Shown here: in pieces, positions 15,704-29,413 of the stretch
Numbering within the stretch: position 1 is the first letter of the stretch
How the letters are laid out: each line of letters opens with the position of its first letter
Assembly: GCA_963835065.1 (NCBI GenBank)
Contig: CAWIEK010000045.1
Location: 32,001 to 96,000 of the forward strand
Direction: 5' to 3'
Origin: an uncultured Chthonomonadaceae bacterium
Lineage (GTDB): Bacteria > Armatimonadota > Chthonomonadetes > Chthonomonadales > Chthonomonadaceae
Length of the DNA stretch: 64,000 nt
Notes under the pieces: generated by a model
What the model saw: the letters and a program-made list of their open reading frames with translations, nothing else
Told to the model about the DNA's origin: nothing
Databases searched by the model: none
Made by a program: the position numbers and the translations under genes

Positions 15704-16034
15704 AGTTTCACTTCCGGTTAGATCAGGGTAAATGAGGATGGCAATGAGGCAACAACGATGTTCCAAAATGACAGACGACAGCCCATATATAAGGTTAGCA
15801 CAAAGACGCCGGATTTCAAACGGAAGAAAGTAGTAAAACGCAGGAAGGAAGAAACAGCAAGCAGTCCAAAGAGGAAAAAGAAAAACTGTCCGTAGAAGTT
15901 TGCAGAGCGTGGTCACGATAAACCCATGAAATTAATCACGGAGTTGCATTAGGTGTGTAAGCTCCAACGGTCAGGCTGCGGACAGTTATGAGAAATAGTA
16001 TGCGGCATCAACACCAGTTTGTCAAGCACGAACA

Positions 16035-16586
16035 TTATAACACACAAGGGCCTTCAATCAATGGCAGCAGATGCGCGGCTATTTTGGCGATGTTGCGGGC
16101 ATCATCTATGCCACGATGGTGGGTTCCCGATAGCGGGATGTTCAGCATTGCCAACGCGCCTCTCATGCCTGTCGGCTTGACGCTCTTCTGCCGCGAGAAC
16201 TCTTTCTTCAGGTTGATGTGGTTCTCGAACGAAGGCGGCAGTTCCATTTTGTGCCGTTCGCAATCCGTTCGGAACTGGTTCAGATCGTAAGCGCCCCACG
16301 AACACAGCCGAAACGGTTCTTCGCCAATCCAGTTGACGAACTGCGGAAACACGGCCCAGAAATAACCCGCCGCGTCTATATCTTCCTGCCGAATGGAAGT
16401 CAGCCGCGTACAAAACTCGCTCAACTGCGGCGAAGCAACCGGCTTGACAAACGCCGCAAACTCACGGCTGACTGTCCCCTCGCTCAACTCCAGCATCACC
16501 GCGCCGATTTCAATGATCTCCATTCGGCTCGGAGTTTGCCCCGTTTCCCAACAGGTTGCTTCCAAATCTACAATCACGTATCGCAT
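16035..16586 (-). CDS. DEDDh 3'-5' exonuclease, ERI-1/KapD-like
   Basis: VIVDLEATCWE, EIIEIGAV, LSEFCTRLTSI, SWGAYD, HHRGIDDARNI. Confidence 0.9.
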   Translation of the reverse strand: MRYVIVDLEATCWETGQTPSRMEIIEIGAVMLELSEGTVSREFAAFVKPVASPQLSEFCTRLTSIRQEDIDAAGYFWAVFPQFVNWIGEEPFRLCSWGAYDLNQFRTDCERHKMELPPSFENHINLKKEFSRQKSVKPTGMRGALAMLNIPLSGTHHRGIDDARNIAKIAAHLLPLIEGPCVL

Positions 16587-16598
16587 GACATATCCTTG

Positions 16599-17234
16599 CT
16601 AAAACGGACGAACGGCAAAGTCGCCAAGCGTGACGGTGTAACTGTTCTGCTCGTTTCGCGCCACGTAGCTGACGATGGTTTCTCCGGCTATGGCGACGGC
16701 AAGCCCGACGAGATTGCGGGCAAGCGGGTAATCGCAAACATCATCGTTGACATCGGAGGGAACGCGGTACGCGCTGTTCCAGATGATTTCGGCGTAATCG
16801 CCCGCAAGCCCGACGTGCAGGCACGGCAGATTGGCTTTTTCGCAGGCGTCTTTAACCGCCTGCCGAGAACCGCTGTTGTCGAACGTGTCTACCACCAGAC
16901 CGCTTCCCGCCAGCAGTTTGCCCGCATTGGCCGGCGTCAGTTCTTCGGCATAAGGCTCCACTTTCACGGCAAGGGCGCGGTACAGCGTATTCGCCAGAAT
17001 TTTCGCTTTGTGCGCGCCAATGTCCGAACGGTAAAACGGCTGCGTGGATAGGTTGCGCTCCTCCACTCGATCCCGGTCAATCACGCGCAAGCGCCCAAAC
17101 CCCTGCCGCGCCAAACTCTCCACAAGATTCGCCCCCAACGCCCCACCCCCGCAAACCGTAACAGGCAGATCCTTCATCCGCCGCATCACCTCTCCGCTGC
17201 GGTAAAGTTGTTCATGATAAAGCGCGTCATTCAT
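16599..17234 (-). CDS. ThiF/MoeB/E1-like adenylyltransferase
   Basis: CGGGALG nucleotide-binding loop, IDRDRVEERNLSTQ, KA, VDTFDN; no CxxC pairs; DDVCDYP is a candidate catalytic Cys. Confidence 0.9.
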   Translation of the reverse strand: MNDALYHEQLYRSGEVMRRMKDLPVTVCGGGALGANLVESLARQGFGRLRVIDRDRVEERNLSTQPFYRSDIGAHKAKILANTLYRALAVKVEPYAEELTPANAGKLLAGSGLVVDTFDNSGSRQAVKDACEKANLPCLHVGLAGDYAEIIWNSAYRVPSDVNDDVCDYPLARNLVGLAVAIAGETIVSYVARNEQNSYTVTLGDFAVRPF

Positions 17235-17281: not shown

Positions 17282-18208
17282 TCAATACTCTTCGTCGTCC
17301 CAATAGCCGGGTTCGCGCTTTTCAATCACGCCTACGAGCGATTGCAGGTCGAACTTTTGGTCTTCCCCGCTCAGGCAGATGCCGGAACTGATGACCGTCA
17401 AATCTTGTTTGCTGATGGCGGAATGGTGGGCTTTGCCGTCACCCGTTGTCCATGCCACCTGCCAGAACTCGCCCTTGTCCTCATAACTGCGCAGGTTGCC
17501 GCCCGCGCCCTGCAACGCGCCGCGCAAGCGTTCCTCATCCCGCCGCACACTCAGGCGGTCGTAAAGTTCCTTAACTTGGGGCGCGTTCGGGTTGTAACGT
17601 TCGCCCACCAGCGCGTTGAAGGCCGTATCACTTTGCAGCGACAGTTCATAGGTGGCGCGCATCTCCGGCGTCAGTCCCGCAAAGCGCAGCGTTTCTGATG
17701 CCTCAACGCGCATTAGCGATTCCTGCAAGGCTTCGGCAGGCGCGGGGTCAGCGCGGCGATCCAGTGTTTCAAACCACCACGTTCGCCCATCCCCGCGAAC
17801 AATCACCTGCTCGAAACTGCGCGCGGCCTCCACCAGATGTACCAGCAAAGGACGCGCGCTGCCTACCTTTTGCTTGGCATCCGACTCGTTGACGGGGTAC
17901 GCCAGCCAGCTTCGATGCTGCAGCCGATGCACCAGCCGAACGCGCAGGGGCAGCAGTTTCCTCAGATACTCCTCAATCAGCATCAAGTCTGCCGTTTCCG
18001 CCACATCCGCGTTGCGCTCATCGCGGGGGCGAAACAACCCCCATCCTTCAAAGTCGCGCGGGCGCGGCGTAAACGTCTGCACGAGTCCGGCAATGCGCGT
18101 CCGCGCGGTTCCCCCACGGACGCAAGGCGCAAGAAACGTGGTTTCTCGCGCCTTTGCTTCTTCGGAAGCCATTTGTTTTAATAGATTCTGAATGTTGAAA
18201 CGGCTCAT
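17282..18208 (-). CDS. hypothetical protein (308 aa) with C-terminal SGICLSG motif, possibly E2-like
   Basis: In operon directly upstream of ThiF; start ATG 18208; E2 likeness rests only on the motif and context. Confidence 0.7.
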   Translation of the reverse strand: MSRFNIQNLLKQMASEEAKARETTFLAPCVRGGTARTRIAGLVQTFTPRPRDFEGWGLFRPRDERNADVAETADLMLIEEYLRKLLPLRVRLVHRLQHRSWLAYPVNESDAKQKVGSARPLLVHLVEAARSFEQVIVRGDGRTWWFETLDRRADPAPAEALQESLMRVEASETLRFAGLTPEMRATYELSLQSDTAFNALVGERYNPNAPQVKELYDRLSVRRDEERLRGALQGAGGNLRSYEDKGEFWQVAWTTGDGKAHHSAISKQDLTVISSGICLSGEDQKFDLQSLVGVIEKREPGYWDDEEY

Positions 18209-18454
18209 AATCGTCTGTTCGCGCGCAAGTTTGAAAAGCAAAGCGCTGTCATGTCAGTTGGCTCCGCCGGGCTGCTGTTACGCGCTCATTAAAGGGTGGC
18301 TGCTTCTAAGCCTACCTGCCGGGTTCATCGCGTCCCTGCCACTTCGCGCCCGTCCACAAACCGACTGTCGCCACAGCCTATATGTGAACGGTACTGTTCC
18401 TCTCGTACTTGTGTATGTAGGCTTCTGCGGTTGGGGCGCGCGAACTGACGATTA
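18208..18454 (-). ncRNA. Y-RNA-like scaffold RNA 3 carrying 23S rRNA sarcin-ricin-loop and L11/GAC mimics
   Basis: 19-bp closing IR with one mismatch (18208-18226 / 18436-18454); shared scaffold motifs; AGUACGAGAGGAAC at 18396-18409; GGCUUAGAAGCAGCCACCCUUUAAUGAGCGCGUAACAGC within 18267-18323. Confidence 0.8.
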
Positions 18455-18524: not shown

Positions 18525-20101
<1,577 letters not shown>

Positions 20102-20107
20102 AAAGTC

Positions 20108-20234
20108 CTGCCTCGCATAAGTTCGGAAAGCTGTGGGTATACATAGGATTTGAACCTATAACAGTCTGGGTATCAACCAGATTGTCCTACCAATGGACAT
20201 GTATGTAAGCTTCCACAGTCAGGATGCGAGGCAG
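20108..20234 (-). ncRNA. Y-RNA-like scaffold RNA 2 with tRNA-Ile(GAU)-like cloverleaf
   Basis: 11-bp closing IR; D arm GUCC-AUUGGUA-GGAC; anticodon arm UCUGG-UUGAUAC-CCAGA; T arm AUAGG-UUCAAAU-CCUAU; 4-bp acceptor remnant, no terminal CCA. Confidence 0.8.
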
Positions 20235-20261
20235 AAGTGTCGTATGTGATTATAAAAGGGT

Positions 20262-20415
20262 TTTGTTCCGCGCAAGTTCCAAAAGCGGGTTTTCACTGGC
20301 GCTCTGCCACTGAGCTACAGCCGCCCAATGTATGCGGCTGACAGGATTCGAACCTGTGACTTCCCCATTAAGAGTGGAATGTGTGTACGCTTCTCGCGTC
20401 AGGGCGCGGAACAAA
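20262..20415 (-). ncRNA. YrlA-like scaffold RNA 1 with circularly permuted tRNA-Lys(CUU)-like domain
   Basis: 12-bp closing IR; order is anticodon arm UUCCA-CUCUUAA-UGGGG, AAGUC, T arm ACAGG-UUCGAAU-CCUGU, loop-closed acceptor stem CAGCCGC/GCGGCUG, UA, D arm GCUC-AGUGGCA-GAGC. Confidence 0.85.
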
Positions 20416-20449
20416 CTGTCAAATTTGAACTATTCTCAACCCTCAACTC

Positions 20450-20871
<422 letters not shown>

Positions 20872-20981
20872 AGAAACACTGTGGAATGTGCTATATGTTT
20901 GTAGAAAGTTATTGTCCCTTTGCCACAAAAAATCTTCAACGGTTTATCACAAAGTAACGACTTAGGTTAGCACTTAAATTC

Positions 20982-22256
20982 ATGGCAATTAAATTCGTAG
21001 CACCCTCTAATGCAGACGCCGTGAGCGATCCTAAAACGATCCGGCACTATTTCATGCTCGTTTTCACAGGCTATTTAGGGTTAATCCTGATTAGCCCAAA
21101 AAGCGGGTTGGGATTACTGCCTCTCCGTTTTCTTCTGAAAAACCAACTGCATGTTACTGCAAAGGACATGGCGTTATTCCTCGCGGTAGGCACGTTTGCG
21201 CTTTACCTCAAGCCCTTAGCCGGAATTTTCACAGACAGCATTTTGCTGTTTGGAACCAGACATCGGCATTACTTTCTTTTTAGCGCCGCAGGCATTGCCA
21301 TCTTGTGGCTTGTTTTAGGTCTGGTTCCCAAAACCTATCCTGCTCTGCTTTGCGCCACAATCGCTTTGACCCTCTGCTGGACGGTGGCACAGACGACACT
21401 TGGCGGACTGGCTGTTGAAATCGGGAAAGAGCATGGCATACCGGGAAGGTTGGCCTCATTGCGGGAAGGTGCGGCAGCACTTACCATTTTGGTACGAGGG
21501 CCTGTTGGAGGCTTTCTCGCAACGCAAGCCTTTATTCTTTGCGCGTTTGTAAACGGCGCTCTCACTGCTTTACTGGCTCTGCTCTTCTTTTTCTGGTTAC
21601 AGGAAGCGCCCGGTGACCAAAATTATGAAGGAGCCTGGAACAGTGTGCGCGAACAATTCGGGCTTCTGTTTCAATCCCGCACCATGTGGGTTGCGACAGG
21701 CTTATATTGCTTGGTGTGTTTCAATCCGGCCTCGCATACCCCTTTGTTTTATTATCAATCAGAGAAACTTAAGTTCACGCCTGAGTTTATCGGCAAGCTT
21801 GGAGTTATCAATGGCGCTTTAGATTTAACCGGCGCGATCCTTTATGCGTTTGCCTGTAAACGTCTGCGCCTCCAAACATTATTAACCATAGGTATCTGTA
21901 TCAACACGCTCTCAGCCCTGCTGTACCTCGCTTATCGCTCTCATAATTCGGCGATGGTTCTCGAAGGAGCCGAGGGACTGGGATTTGGTTTGGCAACACT
22001 CCCACTCCTCGATTTACTGGCCCGCGCAACGCCGAAATATTGTGAGGCATTCGGCTATGCTCTGATGTTCAGTTTGGGATATGCGTCTGTTGCGCTCTCC
22101 GACGTGGTTGGCTCATGGGTGTTCGACCACTATCATCATAATTTCTCGCTGTTAATCTGGCTGAACGCCGGAACGACCGCTTTAGTCTTCCTGGCAGTTC
22201 CCTTCCTGCCGCGCGCCGTGATCAGGTGGCGGGATGGCGAAAGTATGCCTGACTGA
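20982..22256 (+). CDS. MFS transporter, folate-biopterin (BT1)-like
   Basis: LKPLAGIFTDSILLFGTRHRHY, PLFYYQ, ARATPK..EAFGYAL; about 12 TM. Confidence 0.8.
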   Translation: MAIKFVAPSNADAVSDPKTIRHYFMLVFTGYLGLILISPKSGLGLLPLRFLLKNQLHVTAKDMALFLAVGTFALYLKPLAGIFTDSILLFGTRHRHYFLFSAAGIAILWLVLGLVPKTYPALLCATIALTLCWTVAQTTLGGLAVEIGKEHGIPGRLASLREGAAALTILVRGPVGGFLATQAFILCAFVNGALTALLALLFFFWLQEAPGDQNYEGAWNSVREQFGLLFQSRTMWVATGLYCLVCFNPASHTPLFYYQSEKLKFTPEFIGKLGVINGALDLTGAILYAFACKRLRLQTLLTIGICINTLSALLYLAYRSHNSAMVLEGAEGLGFGLATLPLLDLLARATPKYCEAFGYALMFSLGYASVALSDVVGSWVFDHYHHNFSLLIWLNAGTTALVFLAVPFLPRAVIRWRDGESMPD

Positions 22257-25079: not shown

Positions 25080-26147
25080 TTGAAACCCAATATCTTCACT
25101 CGCGCGCTGGGAGTGGCCGCCATGACTGCCGGGGTATTTACCCCGACTGCCAACGCCAACGCGCAGTATGCCTACGTGGCCGACTACAATGGCGGCCAGA
25201 TACTTCGGTATGACGCCACAACCGGCGCTCCGGTCAGCCCCAATCCCTACATCCCCGGTATCGGCGGCGTCGAAGGCATGGGAGGTCGCGATAACATCCT
25301 CGCCGCCGCCACGCTCGGAGGCCCTATCCACTTCATTGATGTCAGCGCCCCCACTCCCACGCTGATCCATACCCTCTTTACGCCGATCAACCCGCTGCGA
25401 ATAAACTTCTCCCTCGATGGAAGCAAATTCTACGTCGCGGGCAACAACGAGGTACTGGTCTACGACTATAAGGCGGTCATCAACTCGCCCACGAACACAG
25501 CCATAGCGCCGCTCAATTCCATTATTGACGTAGGCCATAGCGACTGGGGCGTTGCTGTCAACCCGCTCACCAATGAGGTCTACCATACCACCGGATGGTT
25601 CGGCGGCCCTGCCGGCGTCATCAAGACCGATCCGTTGCTCAACTCTCCCGTCACAGTCGTCGCAGCAGGCGCGAATGGCATCACCGGGCTGGCGGGCATT
25701 ACCTTTGCCAAAAATGGGCAGTCCTTTTACGTCGTCAACGGCGGGCTGACCAATCAAACTTCCAACGATTTTATCCAGCACTACAAGTCCGACGGGACTT
25801 TCATAGACACCCTGGATTTGACGGGACTGCCCGCCCACGCCCTCGATCTCGCGCTTGACGCCGAAATCGGACCCGATGGCAATCTGTATGTTACCTCCTT
25901 TACCAGCGGCACAAATCCCGCCAGTGGTTCCGTGCTGGAATTCAATACCACCACGGACAGTTACATGGGCTATTTCGTCGCGCCCGGTTCCGGCGGGTTG
26001 CTGTCGGCGAAGACGATTCACTTCACTTCCAATAACATCAACACCGCCGTCCCCGAACCCGGCAGCCTGGCATTGTTCCTCGGCATGGGCGTGACGGGAT
26101 GCTGTTTCTTGGCCCGCCGCAAAGTTCGCGCCCGTCAGGCCATCTGA
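25080..26147 (+). CDS. PEP-CTERM protein, beta-propeller-like
   Basis: Signal peptide; GPDGNLYV; VPEPGSLALF + TM + RRK. Confidence 0.88.
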   Translation: MKPNIFTRALGVAAMTAGVFTPTANANAQYAYVADYNGGQILRYDATTGAPVSPNPYIPGIGGVEGMGGRDNILAAATLGGPIHFIDVSAPTPTLIHTLFTPINPLRINFSLDGSKFYVAGNNEVLVYDYKAVINSPTNTAIAPLNSIIDVGHSDWGVAVNPLTNEVYHTTGWFGGPAGVIKTDPLLNSPVTVVAAGANGITGLAGITFAKNGQSFYVVNGGLTNQTSNDFIQHYKSDGTFIDTLDLTGLPAHALDLALDAEIGPDGNLYVTSFTSGTNPASGSVLEFNTTTDSYMGYFVAPGSGGLLSAKTIHFTSNNINTAVPEPGSLALFLGMGVTGCCFLARRKVRARQAI

Positions 26148-26324
26148 AAACTCTTGTATTCTCCGGCATTTTCACCGGAATAATATCAGTCACATTGCCC
26201 GAATAGCATGAATTATGCAACAATCGTTTACGACCACGCAGTTCATCCGTAAGCAGGAATGATTTTCTGAGCTCATACCCGCCTGCGATGGCATAACCCC
26301 TGGCTGAATATGACAAAGGAGCAA

Positions 26325-27020
26325 ATGATCTTGAAAACGGGAATTTTATCCATGCTGATGCTAAGCGCGCTTATGGGCGCGTGTACTGTTGCCGCGCATG
26401 CCCAATCGGTTGACACGGTTGATTGGGCAACAGATGTTACCCCGGATGGCACGGGAACAGGAACCCTCGCCGGGGGCGCAATCACCGTCACCTATTCCAC
26501 GATTCCGGCGGCGGGCAATGCCGGAATTACCATCGCGGATAACTGGAACGTTTCCCTGGCTACGAATGGCGCAGTCGGAACCGGCGTCACGCACCAGAGC
26601 GGTGGTGTCTTCGGGACGCTCACGGGCAGCTTTGTCCAGGCGGTTCAGTTCAGCGCCAGCGTCATGAACCCGATTCTGTACGTCAACTTCTCAGACGCGA
26701 CCACGACGATGGATTTCGGCGCGCAAACGCTGACATTCCTCGACAGCAACAACGCGCAGTTGGCAGGCAACATCGTTTCGTTTGTCGGTTCGAGCAACGG
26801 CTTCAATGACGGCTTCGCCGCGCAGATCAACGGCACGTTCGGGCCGGGGGTCCCGATCCAGTTTACGTACTTCAGCAATGGTTCCGTATCGGGCTTCGAC
26901 TCTGTCGGCTTCACGGTAGGCGTTGCCCCGGCGGCCGTTCCCGAACCCGGCAGCATCGCCTTATTCGCCGGTCTTCTCACGGTTGGCGGAATGTTCGCGC
27001 GCCGCCGCGCCCGCAAGTAA
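26325..27020 (+). CDS. PEP-CTERM protein
   Basis: Signal peptide; VPEPGSIALFAG...RRRARK; AAGGAG SD. Confidence 0.88.
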   Translation: MILKTGILSMLMLSALMGACTVAAHAQSVDTVDWATDVTPDGTGTGTLAGGAITVTYSTIPAAGNAGITIADNWNVSLATNGAVGTGVTHQSGGVFGTLTGSFVQAVQFSASVMNPILYVNFSDATTTMDFGAQTLTFLDSNNAQLAGNIVSFVGSSNGFNDGFAAQINGTFGPGVPIQFTYFSNGSVSGFDSVGFTVGVAPAAVPEPGSIALFAGLLTVGGMFARRRARK

Positions 27021-27119
27021 TCTCCATTTGCCGGAGATAGTTCCGTTCTTGCTCACGGCGCGGCGGCAGACTCTTGCCTTACCAACGCCCTTGCGATTGC
27101 GGCGCTGTCCTAACCTCAC

Positions 27120-27151
27120 AAAGCCCTCTCCACGATGCTGGAGAGGGCTTT
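27120..27151. terminator. bidirectional intrinsic terminator
   Basis: aaagccctctcca / tggagagggcttt. Confidence 0.8.
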
Positions 27152-27177
27152 CATGCGCTGCCTTAAAATCAAGGGGA

Positions 27178-28470
27178 TTAGAGTTGCCGCGCCAATTGAT
27201 CCAGCGTTTTCTGGCGGGCAGGCAAGGGAGCCAGAGTCAGCAGCGCCTGTGATTCGTTCAGACAGCGCGCGGCGGCGTCCTTCTCCCCAGCGGCCAGATA
27301 CATCTCCGCCCATATCATCAGTTCATGGATATGTCCGTCGCCGGCGGCAACGGGCGGAAGCCAGTCTAATGCCTCAAGCGCCTTGCCGTGGAGCAAAAGA
27401 ACGCGCGCTTTCGTCATGTGAAAATAGTCTCTGTTTATTTTACTTTCCTGGCCCCGGCTATGCAAAGACCGCTCCGCCTGCTGAAGAAACGAGGCGGCTT
27501 CCTCCTGGCGGCGTGCCATGCCCGCATACAGGGCCATATCGCATAGAAGGCAGATGTGCAGCGCAGGAGAAAGCAGGCGCAGCCAGGGATACAGCAGCTT
27601 GACGCCATTTTCCGGCCCGCCGGCGCCACTCATGGCATGGGCGGAAAGGATGTTGAGAGCGTCCACAAAAAAATAATCCGGGGCTGTCGCGCCCCGCGTC
27701 AGGTTCAGCGCGCGCCAGTTCCCCGCGCAGGCCTCGGCTTTGCGCCCTTGCATAAACAGCCACCAGCCATGCAGCGCCTCCACTTTCGCTAACAACGACA
27801 AAGCCTCGGAAGACTGGCTTAACAGCGGACGCAACTGAAGCTTCAAGGCCAGCGCGTACAAATCCATCAGGGGAAGAAGCGCGAAGTCACCCTTGCGTAT
27901 CTGCATCAGGGTTTCATACTGTTGGCGACACTCCTCCAGCGTCAATTGCGGCGGCCAATGTGAAGGAGAGAGACGCCCCGACTGCAAGGCCGCCAGCTCA
28001 TGCGGCAAAGCGCCAAGCACACCGCACAAACGCGCGCTATCGTCTTCGGAAGGAACCGTCCGCGTGGATTCCCATCGAAATATGGTTGACCGGTTGATAC
28101 GCATCTCATCAGCAAATTGCTCCTGTGTCCAGCCGCGCCGCATACGCATAGTCCGTATCATATCCCCTGAGCCGGGGAGTGGGCCGAGCAAACTTGCCGG
28201 AATATTCCGTGTTCCCTCGCCTTGCTGCACGAGAGGATTTCGACGACGATCCGGCAATAGCGCGTAGATTTCCACCCGCTCTGACGGGGTCGCTTCCAGC
28301 GCTTTTAGTACATTTTCCAACTCCACGAGGCGTGGCATCTGATAGTTATCAGACTCCCAGTAACGCAGCGTCCGGGGCGTAATCCGCGCCTGTATCGCCA
28401 CTTGTTCCTGCGACATACCCCGCTTCAGGCGCAAAGCGCGTAAACTATGTCCCAAACGATACACCGCCAC
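27178..28470 (-). CDS. XRE-family double-HTH regulator (paralog)
   Basis: Highly similar along its length to 23500-24783. Confidence 0.88.
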   Translation of the reverse strand: MAVYRLGHSLRALRLKRGMSQEQVAIQARITPRTLRYWESDNYQMPRLVELENVLKALEATPSERVEIYALLPDRRRNPLVQQGEGTRNIPASLLGPLPGSGDMIRTMRMRRGWTQEQFADEMRINRSTIFRWESTRTVPSEDDSARLCGVLGALPHELAALQSGRLSPSHWPPQLTLEECRQQYETLMQIRKGDFALLPLMDLYALALKLQLRPLLSQSSEALSLLAKVEALHGWWLFMQGRKAEACAGNWRALNLTRGATAPDYFFVDALNILSAHAMSGAGGPENGVKLLYPWLRLLSPALHICLLCDMALYAGMARRQEEAASFLQQAERSLHSRGQESKINRDYFHMTKARVLLLHGKALEALDWLPPVAAGDGHIHELMIWAEMYLAAGEKDAAARCLNESQALLTLAPLPARQKTLDQLARQL

Positions 28471-28726
28471 ATACCTCCTTTGGTTTAGTTATATACCGTT
28501 CATTCTGCATGTATACGCCTGACTCCTGCTTGGTCCATTTCTTGTGTTTACCGGAAATATACCTGCAACATCGCTTTAATGGGCATGGAATATGCAATAC
28601 CTTATTCTTGAGGCCCTCGCGCTTGTACCGGGAACGCGCCTTGTATCCGGCATAGTATATTCAACGCGCCCGCTCTTACAACAGCGCGCCTTTCGCTCCT
28701 GCCGTTCTTGAAAGGAACACGCATTT

Positions 28727-29413
28727 ATGTACCTCCGACATGCTCTTCGCAGCGCTATTGCCATTGCTGCTTTCACCGCTCTCGCCATTGCCCAACCCGC
28801 TCATGCACAGCAGATTGACACTATAGATTTCACACCTGATAGTGTGGCTGATGGAACGGGAACCGGTACGCTTGCCAATGGCACAATTGCCGTCACCTAC
28901 ACAACACAATCCAACGCCGGGTTTACTCTCGGCATCAACTGGAACGCTTCGCTTGCTACCAATGATGCGGTCGGAACGGGTGCCACCCACCTCATCGCAG
29001 GCGCCTTCGCCGCCGATAATCTCACGGCGGCGACACAAACCGTCACGTTCGATTCTGCCGTGACCAATCCGATTGTGTATGTGGTCTTCGCGGATCCCAG
29101 TACCAGCCTAACTTTCGCTTCCCCCCTGACGCTGCTGGACAGCAACAACGCGCAACTGTCAGGCGGCAGCCTCGTCAGTTTCGTCGGCGCAACAAACACG
29201 CCTGATGATGGGTTCGCGGCGCAAGTCAATGGAACGTTCGGCCCCGGCAATCCACTGACATTCCTTTACAGCAATCAATCCGGGGGCACACAGTCTTTCT
29301 CCCTGACTGTCGGCCTCAATCCCGCCGCCGTTCCCGAACCCGGCAGCATCGCCTTATTCGCCGGTCTTCTCACGGTTGGCGGAATGTTCGCGCGTCGCCG
29401 CGCCCGCAAGTAA
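28727..29413 (+). CDS. PEP-CTERM protein, paralog of 26325-27020
   Basis: Shared DGTGTGTLA, LDSNNAQL, DGFAAQ.NGTFGPG; identical C-terminal tail. Confidence 0.88.
   Translation: MYLRHALRSAIAIAAFTALAIAQPAHAQQIDTIDFTPDSVADGTGTGTLANGTIAVTYTTQSNAGFTLGINWNASLATNDAVGTGATHLIAGAFAADNLTAATQTVTFDSAVTNPIVYVVFADPSTSLTFASPLTLLDSNNAQLSGGSLVSFVGATNTPDDGFAAQVNGTFGPGNPLTFLYSNQSGGTQSFSLTVGLNPAAVPEPGSIALFAGLLTVGGMFARRRARK

Follow-up and report, generated by a model that had tools for sequence, protein, structure and literature searches.

In the Ro60/Y RNA particle, as laid out in 10.1101/312249, a terminal stem serves the protein ring and an effector domain lies at the opposite end of the RNA. Deinococcus radiodurans Yrn1 has an established role in tethering PNPase (PMC4201824), and for YrlA, Hughes et al. 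have proposed nuclease inhibition (PMC7790460). A sponge role against toxin RNases has been suggested for the TrcR-controlled trn arrays of Anabaena (PMC8421152, PMC10272220).

Here we describe a handle RNA that is neither YrlA nor tRNA-Ile, and that is best read as part of a divergent variant of the Ro60/Y RNA system. All coordinates are positions in the window, the whole 64,000-nt stretch of DNA that was analysed, and the RNA element of interest is read on the minus strand. The locus comprises:

20713-20740 (minus): TGCAACTT-N14-CTGTCA, a conserved promoter-like motif preceding the operon
20450-20650 (minus): conserved 66-aa ORF ending in VYG; no family match
20262-20415 (minus): neighbour RNA with the same handle and a circularly permuted tRNA payload; partial YrlA match of 32.3 bits (gathering 69)
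20108-20234 (minus): the element, a 127-nt Y-type handle RNA whose payload mimics a tRNA in the unpermuted order D, anticodon, T, as drawn from sequence, folding, Rfam and covariation
18525-19979 (minus): divergent Ro60-like protein of 484 aa, helical repeats plus vWA domain with a DxSxS MIDAS
18217-18445 (minus): third handle RNA, with a sarcin-ricin-loop 12-mer (18409-18398) and a mimic of the 23S GTPase centre (18322-18267)
17282-18208 (minus): conserved 308-aa protein, function not assigned, which co-occurs with the locus
16599-17234 (minus): ThiF/E1-like adenylyltransferase
16035-16586 (minus): DEDDh 3'-5' exonuclease (KapD-like)
15885-15986 (minus): fourth handle RNA, further diverged, whose payload is a hairpin; it has its own TTGACA-N17-CATACT promoter-like site (34.9 bits; z = -3.18)

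On the minus strand the order is 66-aa ORF, neighbour RNA, element, 484-aa protein, third RNA, 308-aa protein, ThiF homolog, DEDDh exonuclease and, downstream of the exonuclease gene, the fourth RNA. The element ends 129 nt upstream of the start codon of the Ro60-like gene, on the same strand.

Searches with the single 484-aa sequence gave a weak VWA_2 match in Pfam and none in PDB (phmmer) or NCBIfam, and its single-sequence fold was poor (pLDDT 53). A profile built from 92 homologs, chosen among the 120 and 150 matches listed, recovered human RO60 (E = 8e-17), Xenopus and phage Ro60 (5e-12) and Deinococcus Rsr (1e-7). The structure model reached a pLDDT of 94 and its 12 best fold matches were all Ro60 (TM 0.59-0.70 over ca. 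500 columns; 14-16% identity to solved Ro60s). The match extends over the whole length, a helical-repeat region followed by the vWA domain, and in the 92 sequences the MIDAS residues D307, S309, S311 and D393 are invariant and T369 nearly so. On its profile and predicted fold the 484-aa vWA protein is a divergent Ro60. The Pfam TROVE model (PF05731) matched nothing in the genome and none of the 92 homologs; vWA_Ro60 was matched weakly by 21 of them. Since the TROVE model does not reach these proteins, surveys based on TROVE annotation (PMC4201824) may have missed this clade.

In the protein atlas the 308-aa protein had no usable match and the 66-aa ORF matched unnamed clusters only; the C-terminal glycine of the latter and the nearby ThiF homolog suggest that it is ubiquitin-like. 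A sigma-70 promoter scan of 19900-21100 found none. The TGCAACTT-N14-CTGTCA motif precedes the operon in four related genomes (the window, L001:340, L143:1087 and L146:421), and its 20 matches in the genome compare with 5 for the reversed pattern; it appears ECF-sigma-like and possibly defines an ECF-sigma regulon. The same motif also precedes a 484-aa unannotated protein near position 115230 (minus) of contig C37 in genome G000, which we take to resemble another TROVE-like family. There are two long intergenic inverted repeats: one made of 7-nt repeats lies between the element and the Ro60-like start (20006-20100), and a 26-nt pair lies upstream of the operon promoter (20744-20846). Elsewhere in the window, at 25080-29413, several VPEP... 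proteins, presumably of the PEP-CTERM type (labels from motifs), alternate with helix-turn-helix regulators.

The element itself is composed of the following parts:

20224-20234 (minus): outer stem, 5' strand, and after it the conserved CCYRAC bulge (20223-20218); presumably the end that binds protein
20201-20214 (minus): 5' strand of the inner stem and conserved AGCNUACAUAC core, the final four bases being the 5' strand of the pseudo-acceptor
20143-20198 (minus): D arm, anticodon arm (loop 20176-20170, GAU 20174-20172), variable region and T arm
20139-20142 (minus): GUAU, 3' strand of the 4-bp pseudo-acceptor helix
20108-20125 (minus): conserved ACUU (20122-20119) and 3' strand of the outer stem

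The outer stem (20234-20224 with 20118-20108) has 11 bp and 100% complementarity, and the inner stem (20214-20209 with 20131-20126) has 6 bp. The original prediction of a cloverleaf within a scaffold, with canonical D, anticodon and T order and the loop UUGAUAC, agrees with the sequence, in which we located a D stem GUCC/GGAC (20198-20184), an anticodon stem (20181-20165) closing UUGAUAC, a variable region of 5 nt and a T arm (20159-20143) with the loop UUCAAAU. The Rfam tRNA model scores 37.3 bits (gathering 29) with three acceptor pairs deleted. The original prediction that tRNA finders would probably call the element a pseudo-tRNA or miss it held for ARAGORN (no call), although the Rfam model calls it above gathering. 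The RNA folds with a z of -3.71, none of 200 shuffles being equally stable, and the full cloverleaf lies at -37.6 kcal/mol against -41.7 for the minimum free energy structure. The acceptor-like helix joins AUAC (20204-20201) to GUAU (20142-20139) in four pairs, with C-A at the fifth position; it is weak, its pair probability being 0.16-0.18 in a thermodynamic ensemble without protein or tertiary contacts. There is no free CCA, as had been stated: the sole CCA nearby (20136-20134) is internal, two bases past the helix at tRNA positions 72-74 rather than 74-76, and is followed by the 3' strands of the handle.

Compared with the consensus this copy has UCGCAU for CGCGC in the handle, the deviating bases being compensated on both strands, and an extra base after the D stem. 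A contig of public DNA run X1 spans 19977-20456 with 0 differences, but since that run may be the source sample the match gives no independent support. In run X2, a related strain shows changes at 5 of 97 bases; the three listed fall outside the stems and outside GAU, and one of them gives the usual G in the T loop.

The family set drawn from 138 loci contains 301 handle elements, 266 of them distinct. An automatic and imperfect classification by payload gave 104 unpermuted, 59 permuted, 19 anticodon plus T, 25 short, 6 SRL/GTPase-centre and 11 unidentified elements, plus 42 others of which 9 match the 23S helix-69 region; these counts are biased, since 69 of the loci came from a pattern selecting unpermuted elements and supplied 76 of the 104. 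The unpermuted class occurs in Armatimonadota-like, cyanobacterial and acidobacterial genomes and in a large phage. To assess covariation, 50 members were picked by hand, 48 from the 104 and two more that are orthologs whose T loops have eroded. Every stem is supported, 96.7% of cells being paired with two-sided changes in 27 of 36 pairs, and 9 of the 11 outer-stem pairs covary; none of 500 shuffles paired as highly and slid controls reached at most 55%, although relatedness among the members inflates the value.

Among the other payloads, one class (L083:635, L090:1135, L097:283, L118:2043) matches positions ~2259-2291 of this genome's 23S rRNA, which we take to be the helix-69 region. Another, the GCUGCAAGCC class, consists of two hairpins joined by UGCAA and has 11 members (L004:4780, L007:4176, L096:1697 and others); it matched neither this genome's rRNA operon slice nor Rfam at E up to 0.1, and may resemble an SRP-Alu domain. 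Weak Rfam matches to miRNA and other families were rejected as chance. A literature search, beyond whose reach lay key reviews and preprint supplements, yielded no description of this handle family, and a term search of the supplements of PMC4201824 (all but file 6) did not find the handle motif.

RNA and gene are tightly linked. Of 41 related genomes, exactly 5 gave a covariance-model score above 100 bits, and these are the five that have the Ro60-like gene; the RNA always lies directly upstream of it, and two of the five were absent from the model; the remaining matches scored at most 55 bits and were mostly ordinary tRNAs. A handle lies within 1.5 kb upstream of 35 of 39 homologs of at least 60% identity, and the same scan detected one at 1 of 10 more distant homologs (<60%). 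Of the 69 loci that were identified from the RNA pattern and nothing else, 58 hold an operon gene, 51 the small ORF and 30 the Ro60-like gene. The gene is patchy, being present in 22 of 401 genomes of its own phylum (in a few the match is weak and partial), in 26 of 201 genomes of a cyanobacterial sample, and in one 595-kb phage among 50,697 phage records. The locus occurs in the named cyanobacteria Vacuolonema LEGE 07170 and Kovacikia CCNUW1. The phage (L187; LR756511.1) carries the Ro60-like gene, the small ORF, a homolog of the 308-aa protein and several handle RNAs, including an unpermuted one of 88.8 bits. A pattern scan of viruses returned 23 stretches, with a strong unpermuted element in L174 and two more with short handles; operon genes lay within 2.5 kb in none of the 23.

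Tpt1/KptA (4 of 10 loci), L7/L12 paralogs, RNA ligase and RsgA are among the genes that neighbour the RNAs in related loci (45 of 81 ORFs scanned). At 18 loci (L046:4176, L052:6, L083:540 and 15 more) TrcR-type direct repeats, a motif taken from PMC8421152, lie directly behind a TTGACA hexamer; the repeat is absent from this window. The available passages on Anabaena asr0855/alr0857 and alr0739 gave no sequence link to this operon. As a separate observation, rtcB in genome G000 is split in two pieces ca. 1 kb apart (contig C7: 25776-28023).

The element had been likened to tRNA-Ile(GAU), with anticodon diversity at homologous loci named as a check. The five positional orthologs, which have the handle, D stem and anticodon-stem core in common, carry GAU, GUU, UAA, GAC and UAG (loops UUGAUAC, UCGUUAA, CUUAAGA, UUGACAC and CUUAGGA), which argues against that identity. 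Neither of the genome's two ordinary tRNA-Ile(GAU) is close: aligned to the element they come 17th and 30th among 75 in score, and its D stem GUCC/GGAC and anticodon stem are unlike theirs. The body determinants of tRNA-Ile are C4:G69, U12:A23, C29:G41 and A38; at these positions the element has A:U, C:G, U:A and C38. It possesses the D, anticodon and T arms of a tRNA-Ile(GAU) without the 7-bp acceptor or CCA at 74-76, and is not a tRNA-Ile. On contig C49 of genome G000 (430274-432286), an array of 16 tRNA genes with an unusual Ile(UAU) and a second Ile(GAU) resembles a cryptic long tRNA array.

Across the family, 114 of 116 candidates were parsed and 105 had seven-base loops. These display 32 anticodons, GAU in two; Y32-U33-R37 is kept in 89, A34 occurs in 21 and a stop-reading anticodon in 7. 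Arrays place different loops side by side, with up to six unpermuted copies. Some donor identity survives, since Leu anticodons are over-represented (21 of 31) in a subgroup whose D stems are of the Leu type. The T loop is off consensus in three of four orthologs which, together with the weak 4-bp helix, suggests relaxed selection on the elbow.

The 4-bp AUAC/GUAU helix had been interpreted as an acceptor remnant. The four pairs are present, but their 5' strand is the handle's conserved ACAYAC motif and not a remnant. The ACAYAC/ACAAAC core is found in handles of all payload classes, and a 3' strand complementary to it in 87 of 104 unpermuted elements (5.8 expected), as against 0 of 6 rRNA-mimic, 0 of 10 unidentified, 3 of 24 short and 6 of 57 permuted ones. 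Since the core occurs in every class and is paired mostly in the unpermuted one, the 5' strand is a handle motif reused as a pseudo-acceptor; such reuse makes it likely that the tRNA was grafted at position 8, the handle motif replacing the inner acceptor pairs. The pseudo-acceptor pairs hardly vary across the alignment, and covariation is therefore little informative on them. Of acceptor-like pairs, 70 of the 104 members have four to five and 13 have seven contiguous; CCA stands at 74-76 in seven. Those relatives with seven pairs or an in-register CCA could be processed, unlike this copy which, having neither a 7-bp acceptor stem nor a terminal CCA, is likely to be unchargeable. Unpermuted members with a near-complete 7-bp acceptor, one with CCA in register, lie at L007:3142-3270 and L049:407-532. 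ARAGORN reports elements of this sort as tRNA-Asn(AUU), Leu(AAG) and similar; public genomes therefore probably list them wrongly as tRNAs, and the handle family accounts for a class of odd-anticodon 'tRNAs' called by gene finders in genomes with the locus.

A strict scan for handles over all 8.0 Mb of the genome gave three matches, all in this operon (the first three RNAs). The neighbour RNA reads anticodon arm (CUU), T arm, closed acceptor hairpin and D arm; the original prediction was right that its permuted topology differs from the D-anticodon-T order of the element. The payload of the third RNA matches the genome's own 23S GTPase centre at 36 of 39 nt (E = 7e-11; none of 520 shuffles match). 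Six distinct SRL/GTPase-centre elements were found in the loci, some close to L7/L12 paralogs. The view that the two tRNA payloads were captured independently fails at the level of this genome, as handle and payload class go together across genomes. For 153 of 163 elements, the most similar handle at a different locus bears a payload of the same class (class shuffles: mean 87, maximum 112), a comparison in which kin are not independent and the core is included; the handles of element and neighbour are identical at 71% of positions. By this handle comparison, permuted and unpermuted elements form two old paralogous lineages that were passed down with the locus, and are not captures in this genome. 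Two ancient grafts are possible, and are indistinguishable from one graft with later permutation.

We propose, with about an even chance of being right, that the element is a Y-type RNA whose handle is probably bound by the Ro60-like ring and whose tRNA body, which would be unchargeable, serves as bait for tRNA-attacking enzymes under translational stress. The proposal begins with the covarying handle and D, anticodon and T arms, the strict linkage to a Ro60-fold gene, and the sister handles bearing tRNA shapes and 23S sites. A stress promoter would drive the operon (compare the TrcR boxes at 18 related loci and the ECF-like motif here), with the transcript trimmed to the stem ends. By analogy with Ro60/Y RNA biology, the ring would bind the outer stem and bulge and stabilise the RNA. 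Pairing of the handle AUAC with GUAU would let the T arm stack and keep the L shape, and the missing 7-bp stem and free CCA would exclude RNase P processing and charging. These four steps, from handle conservation and linkage through transcription and ring binding to pseudo-acceptor stacking, we consider jointly very probable. In the fifth and least certain step the exposed anticodon loop and elbow would absorb or report anticodon nucleases and other tRNA-binding attackers, and the bound proteins or cut RNA may pass to the ubiquitin-like/E1 or RNA-repair partners.

The bait reading is favoured by the tRNA-shaped loops with diversified anticodons in arrays, the rRNA-site sisters, the TrcR operators and the Tpt1, ligase, RsgA and L7/L12 neighbours. 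The rRNA sites displayed are targets of ribotoxins and translation factors. Against it, loops with A34 or a stop-reading anticodon are poor imitations of host tRNAs if the target is a sequence-specific nuclease, and an L7/L12 paralog beside a GTPase-centre mimic fits active recruitment of translation factors equally to a decoy. The absence of the YrlA Ro60-binding motif, the missing TROVE match, the off-consensus ortholog T loops with the weak helix, and the single handle among ten distant homologs also count against the proposal. A broader proposal, which we offer as speculative and rather doubtful, is that the system represents a branch of Ro60 particles, not previously described, in which one modular handle would display whole and permuted tRNAs and 23S factor-centre and helix-69 mimics, for a surveillance in which tRNases and ribotoxins would be lured in, to be marked or neutralised via the ubiquitin-like/E1 module, the element being one of the anticodon baits.

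A tether or adapter, in which the tRNA body of the Ro60-bound RNA recruits a normal host factor such as an exonuclease, ligase, elongation factor or modifying enzyme to the ring for RNA decay, repair or ubiquitin-like tagging, fits almost as well, and we regard it as a tentative alternative. It has the precedent of Yrn1 and is consistent with the DEDDh exonuclease and ThiF homolog in the operon, with Tpt1, RNA ligase and L7/L12 paralogs in related loci, and with stems kept while anticodons vary freely. A single partner, however, does not call for arrays in which as many as six unpermuted copies present different tRNA-like loops, and no DEDDh exonuclease was seen in the homologous loci examined. 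The position of the element, on the same strand and 129 nt upstream of a gene which handles nearly always precede, could also be that of a cis-regulatory leader, bound within the mRNA by the Ro60-like protein or tRNA-processing enzymes so as to control the downstream gene. This we think improbable, as handles also occur downstream of the gene and before unrelated ORFs, the gene-proximal payload varies freely between genomes, and the outer stem closes each unit in the manner of a stable small RNA. Still less credible is a processing frame that releases a working or suppressor tRNA. The above-threshold Rfam score, the ARAGORN calls on some members, the relatives with seven acceptor pairs or CCA at 74-76 and the M. 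smegmatis YrlA, which RNase P cleaves and which acquires CCA (PMC4201824), speak for it; yet this copy, like most, falls short of seven pairs, the ortholog anticodons differ without matching acceptor identity, and the genome has two normal tRNA-Ile(GAU). Finally, a functionless, decaying tRNA pseudogene fallen into a repeat, to which the off-consensus handle, extra base and eroded ortholog T loops might point, is highly implausible and largely refuted by stem covariation over the 50 members, given also the two-sided compensation in the handle, the conservation of the class from Armatimonadota-like, cyanobacterial and acidobacterial genomes to a large phage, and the three listed X2 changes outside the stems.

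Whether bait or tether, the element bears on the role of the tRNA-like domain in bacterial Y RNAs. The family is a natural payload-swap experiment, one handle being found with an unpermuted tRNA, a permuted tRNA, rRNA sites or almost nothing, and the handle RNAs are a natural protein-bound scaffold for RNA display. Since the locus occurs in cyanobacteria, named strains included, decoy and tether can be directly tested against each other.

A canonical tRNA-Ile(GAU) shares with the element its cloverleaf order, GAU in a 7-nt loop and the T-loop consensus, and is set apart by its 7-bp rather than 4-bp acceptor and CCA at 74-76, by different D and anticodon stems, and by an anticodon that varies among the element's orthologs. 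The Anabaena trn arrays are likewise arrays of tRNA-shaped RNAs, induced by translational stress, and the same operator repeats precede 18 handle-RNA loci; they are, however, real and mostly charged tRNAs without handle or Ro60 partner (PMC8421152, PMC10272220). The Ro60 of Thermus phage phiLo is also a divergent ring, with two upstream RNAs, Yrl1 and Yrl2, and gives the best TM-score (0.70) to the model of the 484-aa protein; its RNAs are simple hairpins with a CGAA motif, for which the available part of PMC12135203 describes no tRNA or rRNA payload. Deinococcus Yrn1 has T and D features oriented unlike those of YrlA, with an anticodon-like arm between them, and so provides a precedent for an unpermuted tRNA-like Y RNA. 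As described in PMC4201824, it is without a full D arm or variable arm and has a 6-nt loop and a metazoan-like Ro60 helix; the handle family, with complete D, anticodon and T arms, 7-nt loops, 32 anticodons and another handle, is set apart by this description. YrlA (RF02553) resembles the element in lying on the same strand beside a Ro60-fold gene (within ~4 kb), with several RNAs per locus (PMC4201824, 10.1101/312249), in its terminal stem formed by 5'/3' pairing, in a tRNA-like domain at the far end with no free CCA, and in the ACUUG that the Rfam consensus shows ahead of the 3' stem strand. An RF02553 search of the element nevertheless gave no match at E up to 10, and the YrlA Ro60-binding motif GNCGAAN0-1G is absent from it and occurs in 4 of the 266 handles. 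YrlA is permuted (T, closed acceptor, D), attached by the anticodon stem and devoid of an anticodon loop, whereas the element is unpermuted, attached on the acceptor side and has a full anticodon arm; the neighbour RNA is permuted and yet retains its anticodon arm.
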